DNA from: Gemmatimonas sp.
GTDB lineage: Bacteria; Gemmatimonadota; Gemmatimonadetes; Gemmatimonadales; Gemmatimonadaceae
Direction: 5' to 3'
Assembly (NCBI GenBank): GCA_031414535.1
Contig: JANNVQ010000009.1
Coordinates: forward strand, 1-49,807
Length of the DNA stretch: 49,807 nucleotides
Part shown: positions 28,736-48,319 of the stretch, piece after piece
Numbering within the stretch: position 1 is the stretch's first letter
Layout of the letters: each line of letters begins with the position of its first letter
Program-made: the position numbers and the translations under genes
The notes under the pieces: model-generated
Databases searched by the model: none
Told to the model about the DNA's origin: nothing
Seen by the model: only the letters and a program-made list of their open reading frames with translations

Positions 28736-29958
28736 TGAATTCAAGCAATCAATGCAACAGCTTCGTCGAAGACGTCCGCCGGGGTGCGGAAGTCGAGCGT
28801 CTTGCGGGGCCGGCCGTTCAGCTGGTCGGCGACGGCGTCGAGTTGCCGCTGCGTAACGTTGGCGAGACTCGCGCCGGTGGGGAAGTACTGCCGTAAGAGG
28901 CCGTTCGTGTTCTCGTTCGTGCCGCGCTGCCACGGGCTGTACGGATCGCAGAAGTAGACCTGCACGCCGGTGGCGACGGCGAAGCGCTGGTGGTGCGCGA
29001 GTTCCTTGCCGCGATCCCATGTGAGCGAGCGCGTGACGTGCAGCGGCAGGCGCCGGATCTGCCGGATGAGCGCGGGCACGACGCAGCTCGGCTCCTTGCT
29101 CGCGACCTTCACCAGGATGGCGAAGCGGGACGTGCGCTCGACGAGCGTGGCGATGTGCGTGTTGTCGCCGCCGGCGAGGAGGTCGCCTTCCCAATGGCCC
29201 GGGACCGCCCGGTCCTCGACCTCCGCGGGGCGCGCGCTGATGGAGACGGCGTCCACGATCTGCCCGCGGCCCTGGCCCTTGCGCGTGGATGCGCGCGAGC
29301 GTCGCACCACGCGCCCCGTGCGCAGGTGCTTCAGCAGTTCCTTCTTGAGCACGCCGCGCGCCTGGACGTACAGCGAGCGGTAGATCGTCTCGTGCGACAC
29401 GTGGAGCTCCGGCTCGTGCGGGTAGGTGCTGCGTAGCCACCCGCTGATCTGCTCGGGTGACCAGTTCAGCTTCAGCTTCACTGCAATGAGATAGCGTAGT
29501 CGCGGCCGCGATGCGAGGCGGCACGCTTTCGGCCACCGCGCGGATTCCCACGCCACGCCGTCGGCGCGCACGGCGCGATACTTCGTCGGGCCGCCATGGC
29601 GTGCGACCTCCCGACTGATGGTCGACGCGGCACGGCCCAAGGCGCGGCCGATGGCCCGATAGGATTCGCCGGCGGCGAGCCCCCGCGAGATGCGCTCCCG
29701 CTCATCGAGGGAGAGCGCCAACACCGATCGCGCGCGCAGGTGTGGCGTGATGCCCCCTTGCTTGCGAATCACGCCGTGGACCGCGCCGGGATTCTTCGCG
29801 AGGTCTTCGGCGATCTCCCGAATCGAGTCGCCGGCGCGGTAGCGCGCCCACAATTCCGCGCGCTGCTGCCAGGTGTAGCCGTGTGGGCTGGGGATGAACA
29901 TCGCAACTACCTCCAAGGAGAGTGCTAATGAAGGTGTTGCATCGACCCTCTGAATCCA
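28736..29958 (-). mobile_element. IS30-family insertion sequence (1223 bp)
   Basis: Imperfect 28-bp terminal inverted repeats (tgaattcaagcaatcaatgcaacagctt vs revcomp tggattcagagggtcgatgcaacacctt, 20/28 matches) around an IS30 transposase. Confidence 0.88.
28741..29901 (-). CDS. IS30-family DDE transposase
   Basis: HTH (RAASTISREV), SPEQIS, SHETIY, GHWEGD, LTWDRGKE, PWQRGTNENTNGLLRQYFP. ATG 29901 preceded by GGAGG. Confidence 0.96.
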   Translation of the reverse strand: MFIPSPHGYTWQQRAELWARYRAGDSIREIAEDLAKNPGAVHGVIRKQGGITPHLRARSVLALSLDERERISRGLAAGESYRAIGRALGRAASTISREVARHGGPTKYRAVRADGVAWESARWPKACRLASRPRLRYLIAVKLKLNWSPEQISGWLRSTYPHEPELHVSHETIYRSLYVQARGVLKKELLKHLRTGRVVRRSRASTRKGQGRGQIVDAVSISARPAEVEDRAVPGHWEGDLLAGGDNTHIATLVERTSRFAILVKVASKEPSCVVPALIRQIRRLPLHVTRSLTWDRGKELAHHQRFAVATGVQVYFCDPYSPWQRGTNENTNGLLRQYFPTGASLANVTQRQLDAVADQLNGRPRKTLDFRTPADVFDEAVALIA

Positions 29959-29992
29959 GTCGCGCGTTCATCGGCAGCAAGCTGCGTTATAC
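29959..29992 (-). repeat. attC remnant truncated by IS30
   Basis: cgcgttcatcggcagcaagctgcgttatac is only the R''/L'' end of the repeat and abuts the IS end. Confidence 0.8.
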
Positions 29993-30002
29993 CGGCCCCG
30001 TC

Positions 30003-30615: not shown

Positions 30616-30754
30616 GTATAACGTTTGCTTCTGCTGCAGCCGCTTCCATAAAAAGCAGTTGTGGGGCATCCGCAGGCTGTCCCATGTACGTTAACGCCGC
30701 CGCCCCACAACTGCATCCGCACCCGCGGCTGTCAGTCAGCAAGCGTCGTTATAC
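30616..30754 (-). repeat. attC site 1
   Basis: gtataac...gcagttgtgggg/ccccacaactgc...gttatac. Confidence 0.9.
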
Positions 30755-30979
30755 GGCGGCCTCGCGCGCCGGACGCCAGGTGAGCGCCAACTTGCGCTCC
30801 GATGCCGCGCAGTCGCGCAGATACAGGTTGATGAGGCTTTGGTAGGGCAGTTCGGTCTCTTCGGCGAGCGCCTTGAAGTACTCGACCGTCGAGTCGTCCA
30901 AGCGGATCGTCACGGAGCGCTTGAGCCGCTTCGCGTACGGATTCTTCTTGGCCTTGGAGAAGTCGTAGTGCTTTCTCAT
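30749..30979 (-). CDS. BrnA/CopG-like antitoxin (cassette 2)
   Basis: MRKHYDFSKAKKNPYAKRLKRSVTIRLD...YFK...PYQSLINLYL; stop lies inside the attC core. Confidence 0.88.
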   Translation of the reverse strand: MRKHYDFSKAKKNPYAKRLKRSVTIRLDDSTVEYFKALAEETELPYQSLINLYLRDCAASERKLALTWRPAREAAV

Positions 30980-31272
30980 TTAGATCTCTGAGCGGCATAG
31001 GAGGCACGCTCGCCGCGATCCGCCTTTCGCGCCGAGATGATACGGATGACGTCACCGTCTTCGCGCTCACAGTGGATGACGACGAGTGCGCGGAGTGCCG
31101 CGCTGAGTCCGACGAGGACCAGACGCTCCTCGTCATCCGAATGATCGGGGTCCGCGATGATCAAGCCCTCGGCATCTTCGAAGGCCGTGCGCGCCTCCTC
31201 GAAGCTCACGCCGTGCTTGCGGAGGTTCGCGGCCGCCTTTGCGGGGTCCCAGTCAAAGCGGAGAGCGCTCAT
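30976..31272 (-). CDS. BrnT-family (DUF497) toxin (cassette 2)
   Basis: FDWDPAKAAANLRKHGVSFEEA...DPDHS..EER...IRIISARKA. Confidence 0.92.
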   Translation of the reverse strand: MSALRFDWDPAKAAANLRKHGVSFEEARTAFEDAEGLIIADPDHSDDEERLVLVGLSAALRALVVIHCEREDGDVIRIISARKADRGERASYAAQRSK

Positions 31273-31278
31273 ACAGAC

Positions 31279-31306
31279 AATGTATGTACGCTGTAATGCC
31301 CGTCAA
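31279..31306 (-). promoter_or_regulatory. Putative sigma70 promoter of the cassette-2 TA operon
   Basis: TTGACG-16 nt-TACATT, ending 6 nt before the ATG. Confidence 0.55.
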
Positions 31307-31331
31307 GGTTCCCAGGCCGGGGAGGCCGTCC

Positions 31332-31466
31332 GGATAACGTGTGCTTCTGCTGTGGACGCTCATATAAAAAGGGTTGGGCGGGGTCGCCGCAACCAACCTC
31401 GGGCATCACGGTGACCCCGCCCAACCCATCCTTCGCTGCGGCCAGCGGCAGCACGCGTCGTTATGC
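31332..31466 (-). repeat. attC site 2
   Basis: ggataac...gggttgggcgggg/ccccgcccaaccc...gttatgc. Confidence 0.9.
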
Positions 31467-31772
31467 CGACCTCGCGCGAGACTTCCGGCGGCCCGTCCGC
31501 ATCCCCGCGACGTAGCTCCGCAACACCGCATTCATGCGCGTCTGATAGCGCGGACCGCTCGTGCGAAACCACTCGAGCACATCTTCGTCCACCCGCAGCG
31601 AGATGGCGCGCTTCGGCGTCGGCACCGTGAGCGTGGCGGACTCCCAGAAGTCCGCCGGCAAGCTGGCGAGCTCGGGCGGCGCGGTGCGCGCAATCTCGGC
31701 GTCGCTCACGCGCCGCAGCTGCTCGAGCTTCGCGCGGCCGCGGCTAGGCTTCTTGGTCGTAGGCTTGGTCAT
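31461..31772 (-). CDS. BrnA-family antitoxin (cassette 3)
   Basis: PKRAISLRVDEDVLEWFRTSGPRYQTRMNAVLRSY. Confidence 0.92.
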   Translation of the reverse strand: MTKPTTKKPSRGRAKLEQLRRVSDAEIARTAPPELASLPADFWESATLTVPTPKRAISLRVDEDVLEWFRTSGPRYQTRMNAVLRSYVAGMRTGRRKSRARSA

Positions 31773-32037
31773 AGGCTTTGCGCTCCCGTCGGTTGCTCCG
31801 CCGCGCCGAGATGATGCGGCGGATGGTGTCGCGGGTGCCGGGCCGATCCGTGTAGACGACGGTCAGGTGCAGGCCGTCCGCCAGGCCAATCGCGATGGTG
31901 CGCAACTCTCCGTAGTCTGCGCGGTCGTCGACGCGCTCCAGCGTCGGGCCGTCAAAGACGAGCGAGGCGAACGCGAAATCAAAGCCTCGCGCCGCATAGT
32001 TCGCCGCGCTCTTGCGCGCATCCCAGGAGAATCGCAC
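31744..32037 (-). CDS. BrnT-family toxin (cassette 3)
   Basis: FSWDARKSAAN...GFDF...DYGELR...RRIISARRSNRRER. Confidence 0.92.
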   Translation of the reverse strand: MRFSWDARKSAANYAARGFDFAFASLVFDGPTLERVDDRADYGELRTIAIGLADGLHLTVVYTDRPGTRDTIRRIISARRSNRRERKAYDQAYDQEA

Positions 32038-32042
32038 TTAGT

Positions 32043-32071
32043 AGTATACATCTGTATATACACGAATGCAA
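32043..32071 (-). promoter_or_regulatory. Putative sigma70 promoter with overlapping palindromic operator (cassette-3 TA)
   Basis: TTGCAT-17 nt-TATACT, 5 nt before the GTG; palindrome TATACA-TC-TGTATA overlaps the -10. Confidence 0.65.
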
Positions 32072-32081
32072 GTCCGGTGCG

Positions 32082-32176
32082 GCGTAACGTGTGCTTCTGC
32101 TGCAGACACTCCATAAAATGCGGGCGCGAAGCGACCGCTTCAATAGCGTGGCTGTCGGCAGCAAGCGGCGTTAGGG
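32082..32176 (-). repeat. attC site 3 (short 95-bp type)
   Basis: gcgtaacgtgtgcttctgctgc...ggcagcaagcggcgttaggg. Confidence 0.88.
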
Positions 32177-41055: not shown

Positions 41056-42054
41056 TCAAAGCGTCTGAGGGCCCGCTCTCCACGTCTCAATGCGCTTCGC
41101 CCGGGGAGTGAGAAAGGCAAGTAGTGCATCGCTAGGCGAGGGGTCAATCACAATAGCCCGCTCAAACCTCGTTACCCACGAGATTAGATCGGCGAACTCA
41201 GTGCGGTCTGGCTCGGAGAAGGAGAAGCCGGCGATCACAAGCGTGTCCGCCTCAGCGGATAGATGTCGAAAGTATCGTGTTGCGAGACGCATCCAGCTGA
41301 GATGCTGTCCGAAGCGATTGAACTCTCCAGGAAGTACGATATCCGCAACAGTGCGCACATTGAGCAATTCGTGGTCGGTCATGCAGCGCTGAGGTACGTC
41401 GGCAAGCGCTGCTTCGGTCGCGCGAGGGTAATCGACGGCTTCGAAAGGGCTGTCGGCCGATGCCGCATTGCGGAGCTCAAACCCGTCTGGTGCAAAGTGA
41501 ATGGACCCGTGTGGCTTGCAAATGGGGATGCCGACCTGCCCTTCTGGGCGTCGATGCCACTCGGGCCACCCGCCGGCGCCAGGGTGGAAATGCTGAACGC
41601 GGTTACGAGTCAACGCGCGCTCCAATACCAGGTCGTAGTTCCAGCTAAGAGCAACGTGGAGATTCTTCCGATACCGCTCGAGCCATTTGCGCCAGATCCA
41701 CCGCTCCATTGACGAGCGGTCGAGCGCCCGTTGGTAGGTCGAGTATGCGAGAGCAAGGAAGTGGCGCAGGTCCTGAAGGCGACTGTCTAAACCGGCGAGT
41801 TCCGGATGCTTCGTATCCGCCGTGGGAACGTCCTCCAGCAACGACTGAATGAGCGCAAACTCCCCCTCGGGCGAAGCGCGGCTACGGCTCTCCAACCATG
41901 TTCCGAGGTGCGGAAGGCTGTCGAGTAGCGGAGTTCCGAGTCGTGGATGCGAGGGCCGCATCGATAGCGGGCTGCTTGGATGAACACCGACGCCAGCGTG
42001 CAGAGCGCGATCGATGGAGAGTCCGTTTCCGCACACAAACGCGATGCGCATCAC
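41056..42054 (-). CDS. SIR2-like (SIR2_2) domain protein, candidate NADase (cassette 14)
   Basis: FVCGNGLS, SWNYD, KPHGS and IAGFSFSEPD are the sirtuin-fold motifs in the expected order. Confidence 0.8.
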   Translation of the reverse strand: MMRIAFVCGNGLSIDRALHAGVGVHPSSPLSMRPSHPRLGTPLLDSLPHLGTWLESRSRASPEGEFALIQSLLEDVPTADTKHPELAGLDSRLQDLRHFLALAYSTYQRALDRSSMERWIWRKWLERYRKNLHVALSWNYDLVLERALTRNRVQHFHPGAGGWPEWHRRPEGQVGIPICKPHGSIHFAPDGFELRNAASADSPFEAVDYPRATEAALADVPQRCMTDHELLNVRTVADIVLPGEFNRFGQHLSWMRLATRYFRHLSAEADTLVIAGFSFSEPDRTEFADLISWVTRFERAIVIDPSPSDALLAFLTPRAKRIETWRAGPQTL

Positions 42055-42094
42055 CGGTGCTATCAGAGGAATGCAATGAAGGGGGACTACGTCG

Positions 42095-42229
42095 CCCTAA
42101 CGTGTGCTTCTGCTGTGAACGCTCCAATAAGAAGGGTTTGGCGGGGCCGCCGCAACCAGCCTAGGGCATCACGGCGGCCCCGCCAAACCCAATCCGCACC
42201 GCGTTCATCGGCAGCAAGCGTCGTTAGCC
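42095..42229 (-). repeat. attC site 14
   Basis: ccctaac...gttagcc. Confidence 0.9.
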
Positions 42230-42249
42230 GGCGCCACTCGGTGGCATTC

Positions 42250-42552: not shown

Positions 42553-43959
42553 TCACTTAGCACGTCTAAGTAGCATTTGAACGAACTGTCGATTGCTTGG
42601 GGCCGGAACCGTACAGAGGTGCTCCCAGCCGAAGCCAGCCGCGAAAGACACGAGCGACGGCAGATCGTACCGAGCAGATGTAAGCAGCGTCACGTCTCTG
42701 TCGTTAGCTGTCAGGTGAAGTGTGACAGACCAGCTACCTGGCACATCACTCAACGCCGGACAGGCGTTCTCTACCACGCGAACGACTACTCGCGCCTGAC
42801 CGTCGCGTAAAGATTCGTGCAAACCAAAGGCGTCGAGAACGGCGCGCACACCCGGAGCCACGAAGTTCCGCATTTCTGGATGATCGTACTTCTTTACGAG
42901 TGCATCGCGTAAGGTCGAGGATGATTGACCGCCAATCGTATCGACGCTGACTATCAGCAGGTCGCCAGCGTGAGCGGTCAAGTTCAGTGACCGAAAGAAG
43001 GCTGCCTCGCGCAGGTTTCCGATGGTGCCACCCGTGATTGCGAACAGCACGGATTTGTCCCGTACGAAGGCTGCGGGACCACTGCCGAGTGCCAGAACGT
43101 CTTTGACCACATACTTGAACTCCACCCGATCGCGGAGGTCTGGTGAGGCCTTGGCTCTTTCCAGAATGCGAGACGATTGTTCCAGCATCGGGTAGTTGAT
43201 ATCAACCAGTGAATACTGAAGCGGGGCGCCGGAGGTGTGGTCGCGTCCCACGAGCGAGCGAACAAGGATTAGGTCCTTGCTGGGGGCGCCACCGCCGGCC
43301 AGCATGACCGCAGAGCGGACGGACGAAGTGCAGAGGGCCTGCTTCCACTGCTCCGTCTCCGTCAAGGCCCGCAACGCGTCCTTGCACTGGTCGTAGGTGT
43401 GGTATGACTCAGCGGCGACAAGTTCTCTCCACACCTCCGCAGCCTCAGGCGTAGAGTAATAGTGACGCGTGTCTAGATGTCCTGCCCGGGCTCCGGAGGG
43501 AAGTGTGACGAGGTCGATGTCGTGCAGCACTTCGACAATTCGCCTGTGCGGGCTCGACGAGCGTTCCGCACTCGCGCTAGCTGACATCGATACTACGGCG
43601 ACTCCGTTGCTTGGTGTCAACGCGTCGTTGTCAACACGCGGAAAGGACTGCCGATACTTCGTGCGGTGTGGTTCGGGCAGAAGATCAATGAACTCCTCAA
43701 GCGATGAGTGCAGGATATCGGAGCCGGTCACGTCAGCTGCGCAACCAAGCTTTTCAGCGAGCAGCTTTAGGAATGGCAAGTACTTCTTGTACGGCCGGCT
43801 CTTGTGCCACTTGCGCATCGCTACTGCTGTGTCGTGCTTAAGGCTCTGTTCGCTCGCCTTCGTGTAGACCTTGTCGACGACATCGCCGGGGCTAGACGCG
43901 TCAAGTATGCGGATAATGATTCTCCGCTTCTCGGGCCAGTGCCAGTAACGCTTGCTCAT
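42553..43959 (-). CDS. EgtD-like (Methyltransf_33) SAM-dependent methyltransferase with unknown N-terminal domain (cassette 15)
   Basis: LDTRHYY...W..L...SY, GGGAPSKD, YSLVDIN, GGTIGNL, LLIVSVD...KY, SARY; about 150-aa N-terminal extension. Confidence 0.75.
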   Translation of the reverse strand: MSKRYWHWPEKRRIIIRILDASSPGDVVDKVYTKASEQSLKHDTAVAMRKWHKSRPYKKYLPFLKLLAEKLGCAADVTGSDILHSSLEEFIDLLPEPHRTKYRQSFPRVDNDALTPSNGVAVVSMSASASAERSSSPHRRIVEVLHDIDLVTLPSGARAGHLDTRHYYSTPEAAEVWRELVAAESYHTYDQCKDALRALTETEQWKQALCTSSVRSAVMLAGGGAPSKDLILVRSLVGRDHTSGAPLQYSLVDINYPMLEQSSRILERAKASPDLRDRVEFKYVVKDVLALGSGPAAFVRDKSVLFAITGGTIGNLREAAFFRSLNLTAHAGDLLIVSVDTIGGQSSSTLRDALVKKYDHPEMRNFVAPGVRAVLDAFGLHESLRDGQARVVVRVVENACPALSDVPGSWSVTLHLTANDRDVTLLTSARYDLPSLVSFAAGFGWEHLCTVPAPSNRQFVQMLLRRAK

Positions 43960-43981
43960 CGGTCAGCCCCCGTGGGTTGAG

Positions 43982-45406
43982 TTAACGTGTGGGTGGCGAT
44001 GCGCGCCTGAGGTAGATGACCGCGAAGTGTGCGAGGAAGCCCGCCAATATTCCAGGCGCGGCCTCGTTCAGATATGCATTGAATCCAAGCATCATCCAGC
44101 AGCTCGCGCAAAGGAAGCCCGCGACGATCGACGCCGATAGGGAAGTGGCTGAGAAGCGCCATCCAAGAAGACGAATAGCCATCGCCGGAGCAAGAGCAGA
44201 CCCCATAATCCCCACTGAACTCAACGCAAGATCCTTCACACTACCTCCCATTACCAACGAAAAGCCCATGGAAATGGCGCCCGCGAATGCTACGGTGCGC
44301 CAGAGCGCGCTGCGGTAGCGGACCGTCGCCTCGGGTAGTTGCCTGAGATCTCCAAGTATCGTCTGGGCAATCGCGACGAGGATGCTGTTAGAAGTGGCGG
44401 CAATCGTAGCGAATATATCGGCGGCAATGATGCCCGTTATGACGGGACCGGTCGTCATGCGATGGAATGTGCTGAGGCCCGCCTCCGGGTCTTCGAGTCC
44501 AGGCATCACGCCGCGAAGGATGATGCCAAACGCCGTCATAGCAATCCAAGTCCCTTGGACAAATACGAAGTAGATCCACCATGCAGAGCGCGTTTCTGAG
44601 GGCGAGGAACCGGCCATATAGCGCGTCAGCATCTGCGGCTGCCCAAGGCCGAAGCCGAGAGCAGCAGCCGCAAATCCAAGCGATGAGACAAGCGAGAGTA
44701 GAAGCCCGCCTTCTGGAACAATGTGAAGGAAGTCGGCGCCCGCGGATTGTAGCTCTTCTGCAAATGCAGGGCGGTGGCGTACGGCGGTAACTGTAACTGT
44801 TACGAGCGCTAGGGCGGTCCCCATGATACGGACAACCGCCTGTACAGTGTCGGCGTAGACGGACCCTCGAAAGCCGCCGAGCGAGCTGTATACGACGATT
44901 GTCGTTGCGAACAGCAGGAGAGCAGTCGAACCGTGGAGCGCAAAGGCGCCCGCGAGAAACTTCTCGCCTGAAAGCCATTGGGCAGAGACGTACCCACCAA
45001 GGCACAGCACCGAAATGACGCCGACCAGCCGCTTGATATTCCGCCGTGCTCCCGGCGAAAGCGAGGCAACGAGTATGTCCGTCGCGGTCGCAGCTTCATG
45101 GGTCCGCGCAGCGGAATTAATGCGATGCGGAAAGAGGTGCCAAAAGATTACGTCACCGACCAGCCATGCGGCTGGGAGCAGCAGCCAACGAGCACCCTCG
45201 GTATACCCCAAGCCCACTGCTGCCGTGACCACGAATCCGCTGTTTGCAGTCGCGCCGGCGCTTAGCCCGACGAGCCACTTGCTAAGACCCTGATTGGCGA
45301 GTGCGAGGCCGGAGCGGCGCGCTTCATGCGTGCGGCCGAGATAGGCCGCGGTGACTGTCGCAAGCAGGGTGACGACGAAGACGATGATCGCGAGAGAGTT
45401 GTCCAT
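43982..45406 (-). CDS. Sodium:solute symporter (PutP-like) (cassette 15)
   Basis: LVGLSAGATANSGF, YSSLGGFRGSVYADTVQ, FGLGQPQMLTRYMA, ATSNSIL; about 13 TM segments. Confidence 0.9.
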   Translation of the reverse strand: MDNSLAIIVFVVTLLATVTAAYLGRTHEARRSGLALANQGLSKWLVGLSAGATANSGFVVTAAVGLGYTEGARWLLLPAAWLVGDVIFWHLFPHRINSAARTHEAATATDILVASLSPGARRNIKRLVGVISVLCLGGYVSAQWLSGEKFLAGAFALHGSTALLLFATTIVVYSSLGGFRGSVYADTVQAVVRIMGTALALVTVTVTAVRHRPAFAEELQSAGADFLHIVPEGGLLLSLVSSLGFAAAALGFGLGQPQMLTRYMAGSSPSETRSAWWIYFVFVQGTWIAMTAFGIILRGVMPGLEDPEAGLSTFHRMTTGPVITGIIAADIFATIAATSNSILVAIAQTILGDLRQLPEATVRYRSALWRTVAFAGAISMGFSLVMGGSVKDLALSSVGIMGSALAPAMAIRLLGWRFSATSLSASIVAGFLCASCWMMLGFNAYLNEAAPGILAGFLAHFAVIYLRRASPPTR

Positions 45407-45657
45407 GGCGCAAGTGTCTGCCAGCACTGCGGGAAAGACTAGACCGTACCTGGGAAAGTTTGGGAATTCAAGTAAGCGAGCTCCGAATCATCACGCACCG
45501 ACCCTCTGTCGTCCCGAGCCCGCTGGGTGTGGTCGCGACTCCCTCACACGCCCCACTGTTGCACCCGTGGCTAAAAACGCCTGAGAGGTTGCGCGAGATT
45601 GCGCGGCGCCTGTCCTGAAGGCGTAACCGAAAGCACCAAATGGAGTAACTCGGACCA

Positions 45658-46524
45658 TCATTGTCCAAGACGCGGAACGCGCAGTCTGGCGCGCACCTGA
45701 GACGCGAGCCTTGGGCTGACCTGCTGGACCCAACTCAGCCGTCCCTCAATCTCCTCGAAGCCGTGAGACTCTGATCCGGCGCGGTACTCAACAATCAGTT
45801 GCTTGAGTGCCTTGATAAAGGCCGGAGAGGGCCGAAGGTCATCCGCCACCTCGATGCCTGTGATGAGGGCCCGCGCAGGAGACACTGCCGTGCGCGTCTT
45901 GTCAGGCTTCAGGTTCAGTCCAAGCAGTTTCAGCTTCTTCTCCGCGAGGTGCCGAAGGCGATTCTGTCGCGTCGGCGCGGAAATGGCAATGTCGTCAACG
46001 TAGCGTGAGTAGTTGCCGCCGGCTTCTAATGCTCCCTGAAGAATGGCGTCGTCGAGCTCTCGAAGTGTCACGTCAAGAAGCCACGGGCTCGTGGGCACTC
46101 CCTGCGGGAGCTGGTCATCGACGATCACAATGTCACACAAAGCCGTGGCGGCAGCCGATCCAAGGCCGGCCACCACGAGTGCACGCTCAACGTACCTGCG
46201 TCGTACGGAGGCGAAACAGCTGTGAACATCGCAAGTGAGGCACCAGCCAAACGAGATGTGAACGCGTGCATGCGACACCGCACCGGCGCCAGGTACCGCC
46301 ATCGCCGCCCGACTCACCTGAACGAGTGGACGCAAGCGGTTGAGTGCACGTCGCTGGACATCTCGCATTTGTCGGGGAGGAACGCGAAGCGTCCTTCCTG
46401 TTGCAAGAACCTTTCTGCGATAGAGGCTTGGCATCTTACGCCGCAGCACCCAAAGCTCGGTCGGAGTGAGCGCAAGAAGTGACGCAAGGTCGTCGTGCGT
46501 TTGGGGCAGGTCTCGCGCAGGCAC
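45658..46524 (-). CDS. Retron-type reverse transcriptase (cassette 15)
   Basis: TCDVHSCF, LPQGVPTSP, YSRYVDDIAIS, KPDKT; retron-like region X (HARVH, cf. NAxxH) and region Y (ITG, cf. VTG); 288 aa, RT domain only. Confidence 0.9.
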   Translation of the reverse strand: MPARDLPQTHDDLASLLALTPTELWVLRRKMPSLYRRKVLATGRTLRVPPRQMRDVQRRALNRLRPLVQVSRAAMAVPGAGAVSHARVHISFGWCLTCDVHSCFASVRRRYVERALVVAGLGSAAATALCDIVIVDDQLPQGVPTSPWLLDVTLRELDDAILQGALEAGGNYSRYVDDIAISAPTRQNRLRHLAEKKLKLLGLNLKPDKTRTAVSPARALITGIEVADDLRPSPAFIKALKQLIVEYRAGSESHGFEEIEGRLSWVQQVSPRLASQVRARLRVPRLGQ

Positions 46525-46530
46525 GTGCTG

Positions 46531-46833
46531 TCAATCCTCTCCAGCGCGCGCTAGATACTCGTTTAGTGCCTGAAGCGCATCGGTGGCAACGCTGCGCCCG
46601 AGTGTGTGCTCTAGATCCTTCGAGGTGATGCTGGAGAGGAGCAAGAGCCCAGGCGGGACGTGGAGTGCGCGACCGATTGCTCGGATGGCGGCAAGAGATG
46701 GTTCGCGCTCGGAGCGCTCCAGCCTCGAGAGCATGGCTGGCGAGAGATTGGCGGCTCTGGCAAGTGCCGCTGAGCTCAGGCCGCGCGCCTTTCGAAGGCG
46801 GCGGATGGTTGTTGCAAAATTCTTTGAGTCCAT
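46531..46833 (-). CDS. XRE/Cro-C1 helix-turn-helix protein (cassette 15)
   Basis: IRRLRKARGLS..ALARAANLSPAMLSRLERSEREPSLAAIRAIGRAL. Confidence 0.9.
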   Translation of the reverse strand: MDSKNFATTIRRLRKARGLSSAALARAANLSPAMLSRLERSEREPSLAAIRAIGRALHVPPGLLLLSSITSKDLEHTLGRSVATDALQALNEYLARAGED

Positions 46834-47105
46834 GGCGACGAAGGCCGGTATGAACGGATGAAGGCCTCGACCACGAGTTTCAATGCGAGTTCGGCAGCCT
46901 CTCGAATAACCACAGCGAGAACTTTCTTGGCTGCCTCACGAGAAAAGCCTGCCTGAGAGCGCGAAATACGAGCGCGCATTCGAGACAGCTTCGCCTTTAG
47001 CTCGAGCGAGGCCTTACGGTTGGTGCTTTGGTCGCTCTCAAGTTGCCTCTCCAACGCGCGGATGAGCTCCTTGAGTTTGACTTGCTGCACGGCGAGCGGG
47101 TCCAT
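46776..47105 (-). CDS. Small helical/coiled-coil protein, candidate retron effector (cassette 15)
   Basis: Strong SD GAAGGAGG 9 nt before the ATG; basic coiled coil followed by a hydrophobic helix; overlaps the HTH gene. Confidence 0.7.
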   Translation of the reverse strand: MDPLAVQQVKLKELIRALERQLESDQSTNRKASLELKAKLSRMRARISRSQAGFSREAAKKVLAVVIREAAELALKLVVEAFIRSYRPSSPWTQRILQQPSAAFERRAA

Positions 47106-47353
47106 GTCCTACGTCCTCCTTCTGGTTGAGGTGCTACAAACGCACCACGACCGAGTGTCGTGGTGACATCCGCTGACGTGTTCAGTCATGTGCTGACTGC
47201 AACCGTTCGGTCGACCGTAACGGCCATCGACCGCCTCTCGCCAATGAAGACGAGGTGACTACTAGTGTGACCGGCCGGAGAATCGTCCCCGGACCGACCG
47301 GACGTACGGTCCCCGACAAATAGCTCGGGGGAAGGAGGCATCATGGATCGCTC
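47094..47353 (-). ncRNA. Putative retron msr-msd-like structured RNA overlapping the small-protein start
   Basis: Terminal inverted repeats 47331-47353 and 47094-47122 enclose hairpins at 47143-47165, 47183-47199, 47208-47233, 47291-47312 and 47311-47330; lies upstream of the RT operon. Confidence 0.65.
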
Positions 47354-47489
47354 TTCGCATTCTCAAACAGCTGGACCGGAAATCCCGGTACGTGAATCTA
47401 GGCAAACGTCGACTGTGAGTCAATGGTCGCCCACGGGTCGGGGCTGACGGGCTAGTCCGGGCTATGTGGGCCGGTCCGCGCGCGCGTCC

Positions 47490-47631
47490 GGCTAACGTGT
47501 GCTTCTGCTGTGGACGCTTCAATAAGAAGCAGTTGTGGGGCGGCCGCTAGGCCGTGCGCTTGTACGAAATGGCGGCCGCCCCACAACTGCTCTCCTCACC
47601 TGCGGCCATCAGTCAGCAAGCGTCGTTAGGC
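47490..47631 (-). repeat. attC site 15
   Basis: ggctaac...gttaggc. Confidence 0.9.
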
Positions 47632-47651
47632 TGCACGCGCGCTAACGATCT

Positions 47652-48305
47652 CTACGCGCTCGGGCCATCCAACAAATGCCAGGCATGCTCGAACGAATGC
47701 GCTTGCTCCCGCAATGTGGAAACGCGCATGAGCTTCCGACCGCCGGGCGCGGTGTAACGGAGGCTACGCAACTGCTCGGCGGGTACAACGTAGACCTCCG
47801 GCGACTCCCAGGGAGAGCCAATGAGGTTGTTGTAGCAGACGAATGCGTAGAAATGATTCGCCGTGGACTCGCGGGCGTTGTCGATTGGCCATCCTGTCGC
47901 CCCGGCCAGTCCCTTCACATCGAGAGAGCACAGCTGGCCTGTGCGCGAAACGACCACCACGTCGACGGACTTCTTGTTGCCGAGGGTCAAGTTGGCCGTG
48001 AAGCCCAAACGATGAAGAAGCGAGAGGATGTGGAACTCAGCGGCCAAGTTCGTGTCGTATCCCTCTGGGGATTTCAAAGACGTACCGAGCCGCTCGTTGA
48101 TTTCGCGAGCCATCTTCGCGGCTTGCTCCGGAGTGGGCTGAGGCGTTCCGAATGCATCCGCCCCATCTTCACGCACCGCATAGTAGTTGCGCACGAGAGA
48201 TGGCGACACAAGTCCGCCAAGGTAGCGAATGGCCATGGGGTTGTTCTCCGCGGCCTCCGCAAAGTCGGCAACCGCCTGACGCCACGCTGCACGTCGACTC
48301 GTCAT
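47652..48305 (-). CDS. PD-(D/E)XK-like nuclease (cassette 16)
   Basis: AAEFHILSLLHRLG...KKSVDVVV...SLDVKG matches the E...D...(D/E)xK arrangement. Confidence 0.7.
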   Translation of the reverse strand: MTSRRAAWRQAVADFAEAAENNPMAIRYLGGLVSPSLVRNYYAVREDGADAFGTPQPTPEQAAKMAREINERLGTSLKSPEGYDTNLAAEFHILSLLHRLGFTANLTLGNKKSVDVVVVSRTGQLCSLDVKGLAGATGWPIDNARESTANHFYAFVCYNNLIGSPWESPEVYVVPAEQLRSLRYTAPGGRKLMRVSTLREQAHSFEHAWHLLDGPSA

Positions 48306-48319
48306 TACTCTCCTCGTCA

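Follow-up and report, generated by a model that had tools for sequence, protein, structure and literature searches.

Type VI retrons and the locus in Gemmatimonas

How type VI retrons keep their toxin in check is disputed. As far as the accessible parts of the two papers go, control is translational in Retron-Vpa2 (10.1101/2025.10.22.683967) and post-translational in Retron-Sen3 (10.64898/2026.04.27.721009). Occlusion of the ribosome binding site (RBS) and a release that depends on the reverse transcriptase (RT) have been shown for Retron-Vpa2 (10.1101/2025.10.22.683967). Defence by Retron-Sen3 needs a 5′ stem-loop, and the same paper defines the type VI 'Large' lineage by small proteins (SPs) that fall outside the described SP clusters (10.64898/2026.04.27.721009). 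Here we describe a locus of comparable build on contig JANNVQ010000009.1 of Gemmatimonas sp. (GCA_031414535.1). Positions 1 to 49,807 of the contig were analysed (the window), and all coordinates refer to this stretch. On its minus strand lie, in the order of transcription, a non-coding RNA (ncRNA), an SP of 109 aa (46776..47105), an XRE/Cro-C1 helix-turn-helix (HTH) protein of 100 aa (46531..46833) and an RT of 288 aa with a YVDD motif (45658..46524), under a predicted promoter of their own. All three open reading frames (ORFs) are intact; the SP and HTH genes overlap by 58 nt, and 6 nt separate HTH from RT. Judged by its genes and ends, this is a complete, self-promoted retron borne in an integron cassette and, by analogy, likely an anti-phage system.

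We read the locus as a type VI-like abortive-infection retron whose predicted toxin, the SP, is held off both by occlusion of its RBS and by a ClpXP degron, and give this reading a probability of roughly one half. A further-reaching proposal is tentative, and we would bet somewhat against it as a whole: that this is a new lineage with proteolysis-gated defence, in which the toxin gene has no stop of its own and borrows a ClpXP degron, re-evolved at four positions, from another frame of the HTH gene, while a two-state RNA couples RT priming to RBS exposure. A first-pass annotation, made from the sequence alone, had proposed a divergent type VI-like retron mobilised as an integron cassette. Its gene order stands, with the XRE HTH and the 109-aa protein upstream of the RT on the minus strand as it had placed them, but it missed the SP-HTH overlap and the promoter, and the 5.4 kb cassette has genes for a symporter and a methyltransferase as well. 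The label 'divergent type VI-like' is apt: the best HTH model is that of type VI and the RNA is built like those of Sen3 and Vpa2, whereas the SP is a separate family and the trees neither show nor reject a place of the RT in clade 3 (types IV, V and VI).

Conservation was assessed in 14 loci of this clade. L051, with an RT fragment and no HTH seen, is outside all counts, and L177 was put in the clade by similarity, without placement in the tree. Twelve reference loci served for SP/HTH spacing and SP ends. Among 400 genomes of the phylum there were 13 matches to the RT, ten of them with an HTH directly upstream. Proteins 76-89% identical to those of the window exist without DNA context; longest assembly pieces of 6218, 4449 and 3065 are common to the close RT, HTH and SP proteins, which suggests, without showing, that the three travel together. 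Neither a metagenome scan (best match 32%) nor a genome scan, sets of 61, 401, 401 and 401 genomes or viral and plasmid scans yielded a close relative together with its DNA surroundings, and the covariation described below therefore rests on distant loci. A DNA pattern scan of viral contigs returned 120 loci, none with an RT or SP.

A structured RNA with two predicted, crossing helices

A sigma70 promoter is predicted at 47395..47423 (minus strand, TTGACT-17-TAGATT), and in all 14 clade loci a −35 TTGAC precedes the RNA motif described below by 52-68 nt. The unit starts at this promoter, at 47423, and not at 47353, the limit set by the first-pass annotation; the stretch 47094-47353 that it gave for the RNA is too short at the 5′ end. 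A 5′ stem-loop follows at 47375..47389, in the position of the Sen3 5′ stem-loop, and a hairpin is predicted here in 13/14 clade loci although the sequences differ. Next comes motif A (G.T.TTTGA, 47362..47371), invariant in 13/13 aligned loci, in which two invariant G (47371 and 47364) are candidate branch points. The motif also occurs in reference loci L145 and L016 and, as variants, in L142 and L143, where the second invariant G is not kept. Arm B (47331..47353) precedes a structured body with msr/msd-like hairpins (47131..47330), the predicted template of the RT, which includes a 9 bp stem at 47143-47165. The body is followed by A′ (47122..47130), complementary to motif A at 8/9 bases and directly 5′ of a strong Shine-Dalgarno sequence for SP (47115-47121). 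All of these lie on the minus strand.

The non-coding region had been called hairpin-rich, and 47094-47360 indeed folds far better than its shuffled versions (z −5.3 with 200 shuffles, −5.7 with 60). A noisier tiling with 12 shuffles gave z −3.1, rank 11 among 89 tiles. Of the ten tiles ahead of it, six include attC hairpins, and the remaining four drop to between −1.1 and −2.4 at 60 shuffles. A 52-aa ORF within the ncRNA (47186-47344) has no family match and was treated as not a gene. We did not find an Rfam match in the ncRNA stretch.

Long-range inverted repeats close this structured ncRNA. Arm B is the predicted partner (B′) of the SP Shine-Dalgarno, the ATG and the first codons, with a pairing probability of about 1.0, so that fold prediction and a permutation test agree on sequestration of the RBS and start of SP. 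Across the clade the cognate B:B′ pairs sum to −349 against −263 for permuted pairs (p 1e−5; p 3e−5 for nine collapsed loci), and the complementarity of A:A′ is likewise clade-wide (p 6e−5; 2e−4 collapsed). In L177 the promoter, hairpin, motif and a B:B′ duplex of −41 kcal are all present. The two helices cross, and the linkers seem too short to allow both of them in full, which suggests a switch.

Control as in Retron-Sen3 would give the same RNA a lesser role. The SP would always be made and be neutralised by binding of the HTH protein, single-stranded DNA would be constitutive, and helices and tail would only tune the dose. Such control has been shown for Retron-Sen3, where the RBS is likewise predicted to be occluded and a 5′ stem-loop is present (10.64898/2026.04.27.721009, in the accessible part); the window SP matches that of Sen3 in size and has a third helix that is long and amphipathic, and the motif is shared with the reference loci named above. 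Yet the Sen3-type IR1-IR2 (inverted repeat) pairing across SP is unsupported in the clade (p 0.78), the predicted RBS occlusion is very strong, and a degron under selection, as considered below, would fit a toxin that is kept scarce. We regard such control as possible but rather unlikely here.

The small protein

Nine SP homologues are 47-100% identical and all 108-109 aa long. AlphaFold predicts three helices over residues 3-86 (mean predicted local distance difference test, pLDDT, 80), the third long and amphipathic, and a tail at about 50. The locus thus has a small helical protein upstream of the HTH, as type VI requires. PADLOC's SP_VI model matched neither the window SP nor two close homologues nor five clade SPs, but its sensitivity is limited, as it found only 3/7 reference SPs. 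Searches for a fold or atlas match gave none, and Pfam and NCBIfam matches were far below cut-off. A profile built from the clade SPs found two held-out clade SPs (E 7e−7 and 8e−6) and no reference SP at E below 7, and hhalign against the reference SPs gave 1.3%. By these profile comparisons the SP is a separate family. Its toxicity is predicted from Vpa2 and Sen3. Prediction of an SP-HTH complex gave a median of 0.14 against a mark of 0.32, which is evidence neither way.

An overprinted tail ending in Ala-Ala

In 13/14 clade loci the SP frame stays open up to the HTH start and runs 58-346 nt into the HTH gene. L037 is the exception, with a normal SP stop. In L038 the SP lies in two frames (oriented 775-1186) and only its second half reads through, ending in Thr-Ala. 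In the reference loci, SP stops 17-92 nt before HTH in 12/12, with read-through in 0/12 and an Ala-Ala end in 0/12; five of these SPs (L003, L005, L138, L143 and L016) have Glu as their last residue, contrary to what a degron would show. In the window the overlap is 46776..46833 (minus strand), where the SP tail is read in another frame of the HTH gene and is a candidate ClpXP degron. A single loss of the stop in an ancestor could account for the read-through, and the 13/14 loci are not independent counts.

The ends of the tails are more telling. Ala-Ala terminates 8/13 read-through SPs, at four HTH positions and in two frames, with varying Ala codons. Resampling of synonymous HTH codons predicts 0.20 Ala-Ala ends where 7 are seen in 12 loci, and with kin collapsed 0.13 where 4 are seen in 8 (p 3e−6, or about 1e−3 after multiplication by the 400 dipeptides). 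The genome background of Ala-Ala ends is 69/3705. L177, which was examined after the idea had been written down, has a 77-nt read-through and an Ala-Ala end (null 0.014). Among the nine close SP homologues, only A108 and A109 are invariant beyond R84. The host tag encoded by transfer-messenger RNA (tmRNA) ends in Ala-Ala as well, and ClpX is present in the host. The Ala-Ala tail would likely mark the predicted toxin for destruction. In bacteria, few overprinted protein signals under selection are known. Searches on retrons with a ClpXP degron and on overlap in type VI retrons did not find such a tail, in a literature that left subscription papers mostly outside and in which preprint supplements could hold clade members.

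The overlap may also be read otherwise, as a means to couple the translation of SP and HTH or to let one interfere with the other, or as a frozen stop loss in a type VI-like retron, with Ala-Ala being no degron. The window's HTH gene has no evident Shine-Dalgarno sequence, a single ancestral event would be enough for the read-through, and 5/13 read-through tails are without Ala-Ala, three of them in overlaps as long as 224-346 nt. What makes this explanation unlikely is that Ala-Ala recurs at several positions, in both frames and in different codons, far above the two nulls given above. A fixed programmed SP-HTH frameshift was considered and is improbable, as two frames occur, none of them in frame, and no conserved slippery site was seen by eye.

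Reverse transcriptase and type placement

The RT is a retron RT by its profile matches. It matches Pfam RVT_1 (E 6e−14), and the YVDD, HARVH and ITG motifs reported by the first-pass annotation are present. The latter two stand in the place of NAxxH (region X) and VTG (region Y), the usual retron motifs; sister RTs (P0010-P0014) have NAxxH in 4/5 and VTG in 3/5. The 25 best PADLOC models are all retron RTs, led by III-A (119 bits), II-A (118) and VI (112), and the RT_VI match spans residues 9-273. The PADLOC check that had been proposed was thereby favourable, and for the HTH protein the type VI model is the best. RT_VI is the top label in 6/10 of the nearest representatives (P0005-P0014). The NCBIfam retron St85 model scores 102 bits against at most 37 for Drt2, group II and Drt3a, and the 12 best matches in the PDB are retron RTs (96-139 bits), the others, group II, DRT2 and Eco8 among them, reaching at most 51. 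By these scores the RT does not group with non-retron classes, a grouping that would have spoken against the first-pass annotation.

A phylogeny of the RT, also proposed earlier, gave it a clade of its own. In a mixture-model tree of 49 rows (15 of 64 were removed beforehand) the RT falls inside a clade of 20 rows with support of 99/91. A first tree, rooted on L035, was set aside because that long branch distorted it. Joining the clade to type VI and V references has an approximately unbiased (AU) p of 0.52 (log-likelihood difference, lnL, +0.3) and the rival join to III-A/Ec107 one of 0.14 (lnL −8.7), so neither is rejected; the references were labelled by PADLOC scores and gene order, and those of type VI are not monophyletic in the tree. 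A join to types IV, V and VI is thus neither shown nor rejected. We use 'type VI-like' on the strength of architecture and not of the tree.

The changed region X motif and the lost SP stop could be taken for marks of a decaying retron, an inactive relic in the array, and the frameshifted SP of L038 would agree. We consider this very unlikely, since none of the three ORFs is broken and the RTs of relatives, at 42-89% identity, still have full length, the catalytic Asp pair and the H-x-x-x-H form; SP homologues hardly vary in length, and promoter and RNA are conserved. That the RT belongs to DRT, group II or some other non-retron class, with HTH and small ORF as chance neighbours, is hardly credible, for although its scores against profiles are modest, 119 bits at most, and its best single PADLOC label is III-A and not VI, the St85 score, the PDB ranking and an architecture conserved across the clade largely refute it.

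HTH protein and candidate operator

The HTH protein matches Pfam HTH_3 (E 3e−13), and HTH_VI is the best of 18 in PADLOC (E 4.7e−15). A Cro/C1 HTH directly upstream of the RT is what type VI requires. The protein also matches PADLOC's Control_protein model (E 2.7e−8). A GACT-N3-AGTC palindrome surrounds the −35 (47411-47421, minus strand) and is a candidate HTH operator; the −35 is half of such a palindrome in 5/14 clade loci against 54/4534 in the genome background. The HTH protein may repress the promoter through it, a lead for autoregulation. Boxes of controller proteins that overlap a −35, with a GACT half-box, have been described (PMC2175313, in the accessible text). In one clade locus (L042, 1051-2295) HTH and RT form one uninterrupted frame of 415 aa and may be fused.

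Proposed mechanism

We infer the switch, the degron, the toxicity, the trigger and the multicopy single-stranded DNA (msDNA), and join them as follows. The single transcript would fold into an OFF state in which arm B covers the Shine-Dalgarno sequence, the start and the first codons of SP. The crossing helix A:A′ would be the priming-competent state, with the Shine-Dalgarno freed. The HTH protein, together with the RT, would hold the OFF state as in Retron-Vpa2, and leaked toxin would be sent to ClpXP by its Ala-Ala tail. A phage signal, which by analogy with Vpa2 and Sen3 may be recombination proteins or inhibition of RecBCD, would let the RT copy the RNA body and open the Shine-Dalgarno, after which a burst of SP would outrun proteolysis and arrest the infected cell. 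The HTH protein may additionally repress the promoter through the −35 palindrome. If, as in the further-reaching proposal, defence is gated by proteolysis, phage interference with ClpXP or with ribosome rescue could itself trigger it.

Several results weigh against this reading. In the window, B:B′ is more stable than the A:A′ fold by 16 kcal/mol, and A:A′ reaches only rank 6 of 13. A plain comparison of duplexes with shuffled sequences was not significant, and RNAalifold on the MAFFT alignment gave 0 consensus pairs. Since the SP has no detectable likeness to reference SPs, its toxicity is predicted from position and analogy, and the RT tree does not settle the type. As for the degron, there are the five read-through loci without Ala-Ala, three with long overlaps. 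The correction for 400 dipeptides was made because the pattern had been noticed ahead of any test, and L177 is related to L039 and L050. For ClpXP degrons a terminal Ala-Ala is critical but does not suffice, and polar residues are unfavourable five positions from the end; the window SP has Glu in that place and fits the consensus only partly (PMC10862746, in the accessible text).

The integron cassette and its passengers

The retron was expected to lie inside an integron, and 18 attC-like repeats are indeed found between 30.6 kb and the window end. The attC of the preceding cassette (47486..47635, minus strand) supplies the R′ core that marks the cassette start at 47495, and the cassette's own attC lies at 42091..42233 (minus strand). 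The cassette is 47495-42101, 5,395 bp, with five ORFs and the ncRNA and no internal attC at the profile threshold. Its start and its own R″ agree over 9 nt; 15/17 cassettes show such a match, whereas non-cognate pairs reach at least 9 in 11/272. This fits mobilisation as a cassette.

Downstream of the RT, on the same strand, are a sodium:solute symporter of 474 aa (43982..45406) and an EgtD-like S-adenosylmethionine (SAM) methyltransferase of 468 aa (42553..43959), identified by family matches. They were considered as retron parts and rejected, being absent from the flanks of 14 other loci (4.7-14 kb each, including the genome of L051). The pair also occurs in another genome, G144 (L271), whose 2.6 kb give no match for the RT. 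Since it is missing from the other flanks and stands together there without an RT, we treat both as probable passengers. Among the best 120 symporter matches, none shares a longest-piece size with the close retron proteins. The pair (42553-45406 in the window, and L271) may move as a separate module. In G144 it stands beside an ORF that by eye resembles a restriction-type nuclease, and methyltransferases related to the window's EgtD-like one are often fused to an HTH.

An integron integrase (IntI) above the family cut-off is encoded on contig C31, next to attC sites of the same kind; the window contig has none and ends inside an attC. The C31 integrase (45625-46566) has the same orientation as its cassettes, with the array (at about 46700) at its 3′ end. 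The C31 end folds back onto itself at an attC hairpin, probably an assembly artefact. By attC-profile matches on 18 contigs, this is a large, fragmented chromosomal integron. Neither attC nor integrase was found in the flanks of the 14 other loci, with an attC profile that is specific to this genome.

Other cassettes deserve mention. The adjoining one (41056-42054) encodes a SIR2-like protein (Pfam SIR2_2, E 2e−4; weak PADLOC SIR2 matches), a further defence candidate, and the protein of the preceding one (47652-48307) has no family match and by eye looks like a PD-(D/E)XK nuclease. The two outermost cassettes (30622-32087) fail the R′/R″ match (5 and 4 nt), which suggests that their ends are rearranged or decayed. 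Isolated or partial attC copies lie at 1426-1559, 2643-2682 and 29954-29994, the first two about 28 kb off the array.

Comparison with known systems

The comparisons that follow refer to the accessible parts of the papers cited. Retron-Sen3 (type VI, cl2075) shares with this locus the order ncRNA-SP-HTH-RT, a native promoter, a 5′ stem-loop before the 5′ arm, an SP RBS in the basal stem and a helical SP core of about 80 aa (10.64898/2026.04.27.721009). It differs in that the window RT is in a clade separate from loci with SP_VI matches, and the window SP has no such match. Here SP reads into HTH, hence there is no intergenic region and no IR1-IR2 pairing after the SP stop (10.64898/2026.04.27.721009). 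A term search of the Sen3 main text turned up neither an overlap of SP with HTH nor an operator, degradation or an integron, its overlap passages concerning HTH-RT (10.64898/2026.04.27.721009).

Retron-Vpa2 (type VI 'Large') likewise has the RBS and start codon in a hybrid RNA with HTH and RT downstream, and its model is one of RT-dependent translational release (10.1101/2025.10.22.683967). Its SP is 55 aa (length via 10.64898/2026.04.27.721009) against 109 aa here, and the switch proposed for it works by 7-nt direct repeats, in contrast to the two conserved crossing helices of this locus (10.1101/2025.10.22.683967). Overlap, operator and protease are not mentioned in the accessible main text of that paper.

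Beyond retrons, the controller (C) proteins of restriction-modification systems are XRE proteins with a GACT half-box over the −35, but their operators are tandem boxes (PMC2175313), whereas a single palindrome, clear in 5/14 loci only, is the candidate operator here. The ssrA-like ClpXP degrons resemble the SP end in the terminal Ala-Ala on a low-confidence tail, and the host tag ends alike. The candidate tag here is instead genome-encoded by overprinting, and its upstream residues fit the consensus in part (PMC10862746). Anti-phage cassettes of sedentary chromosomal integrons are attC-bounded, and as for Sucellos there is a promoter of its own, with defence predicted here. This cassette differs in its 5.4 kb with five ORFs and ncRNA, and the word 'retron' is absent from the accessible main text of that study (10.1101/2024.07.02.601686). 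A literature search on retrons in integron cassettes with attC, with few subscription papers in its reach, found no paper with retron in title or abstract.

What the locus adds, by its sequence and that of its clade, is a lineage set apart by an SP family of its own, by two crossing helices that are conserved as complementarity and by an SP tail that is overprinted on HTH and ends in Ala-Ala. To the dispute over translational and post-translational control, this lineage would offer a third layer, proteolysis via the overprinted candidate degron. It would also name the helices by which the RT could open the RBS, a step left open in the accessible account of Retron-Vpa2 (10.1101/2025.10.22.683967).

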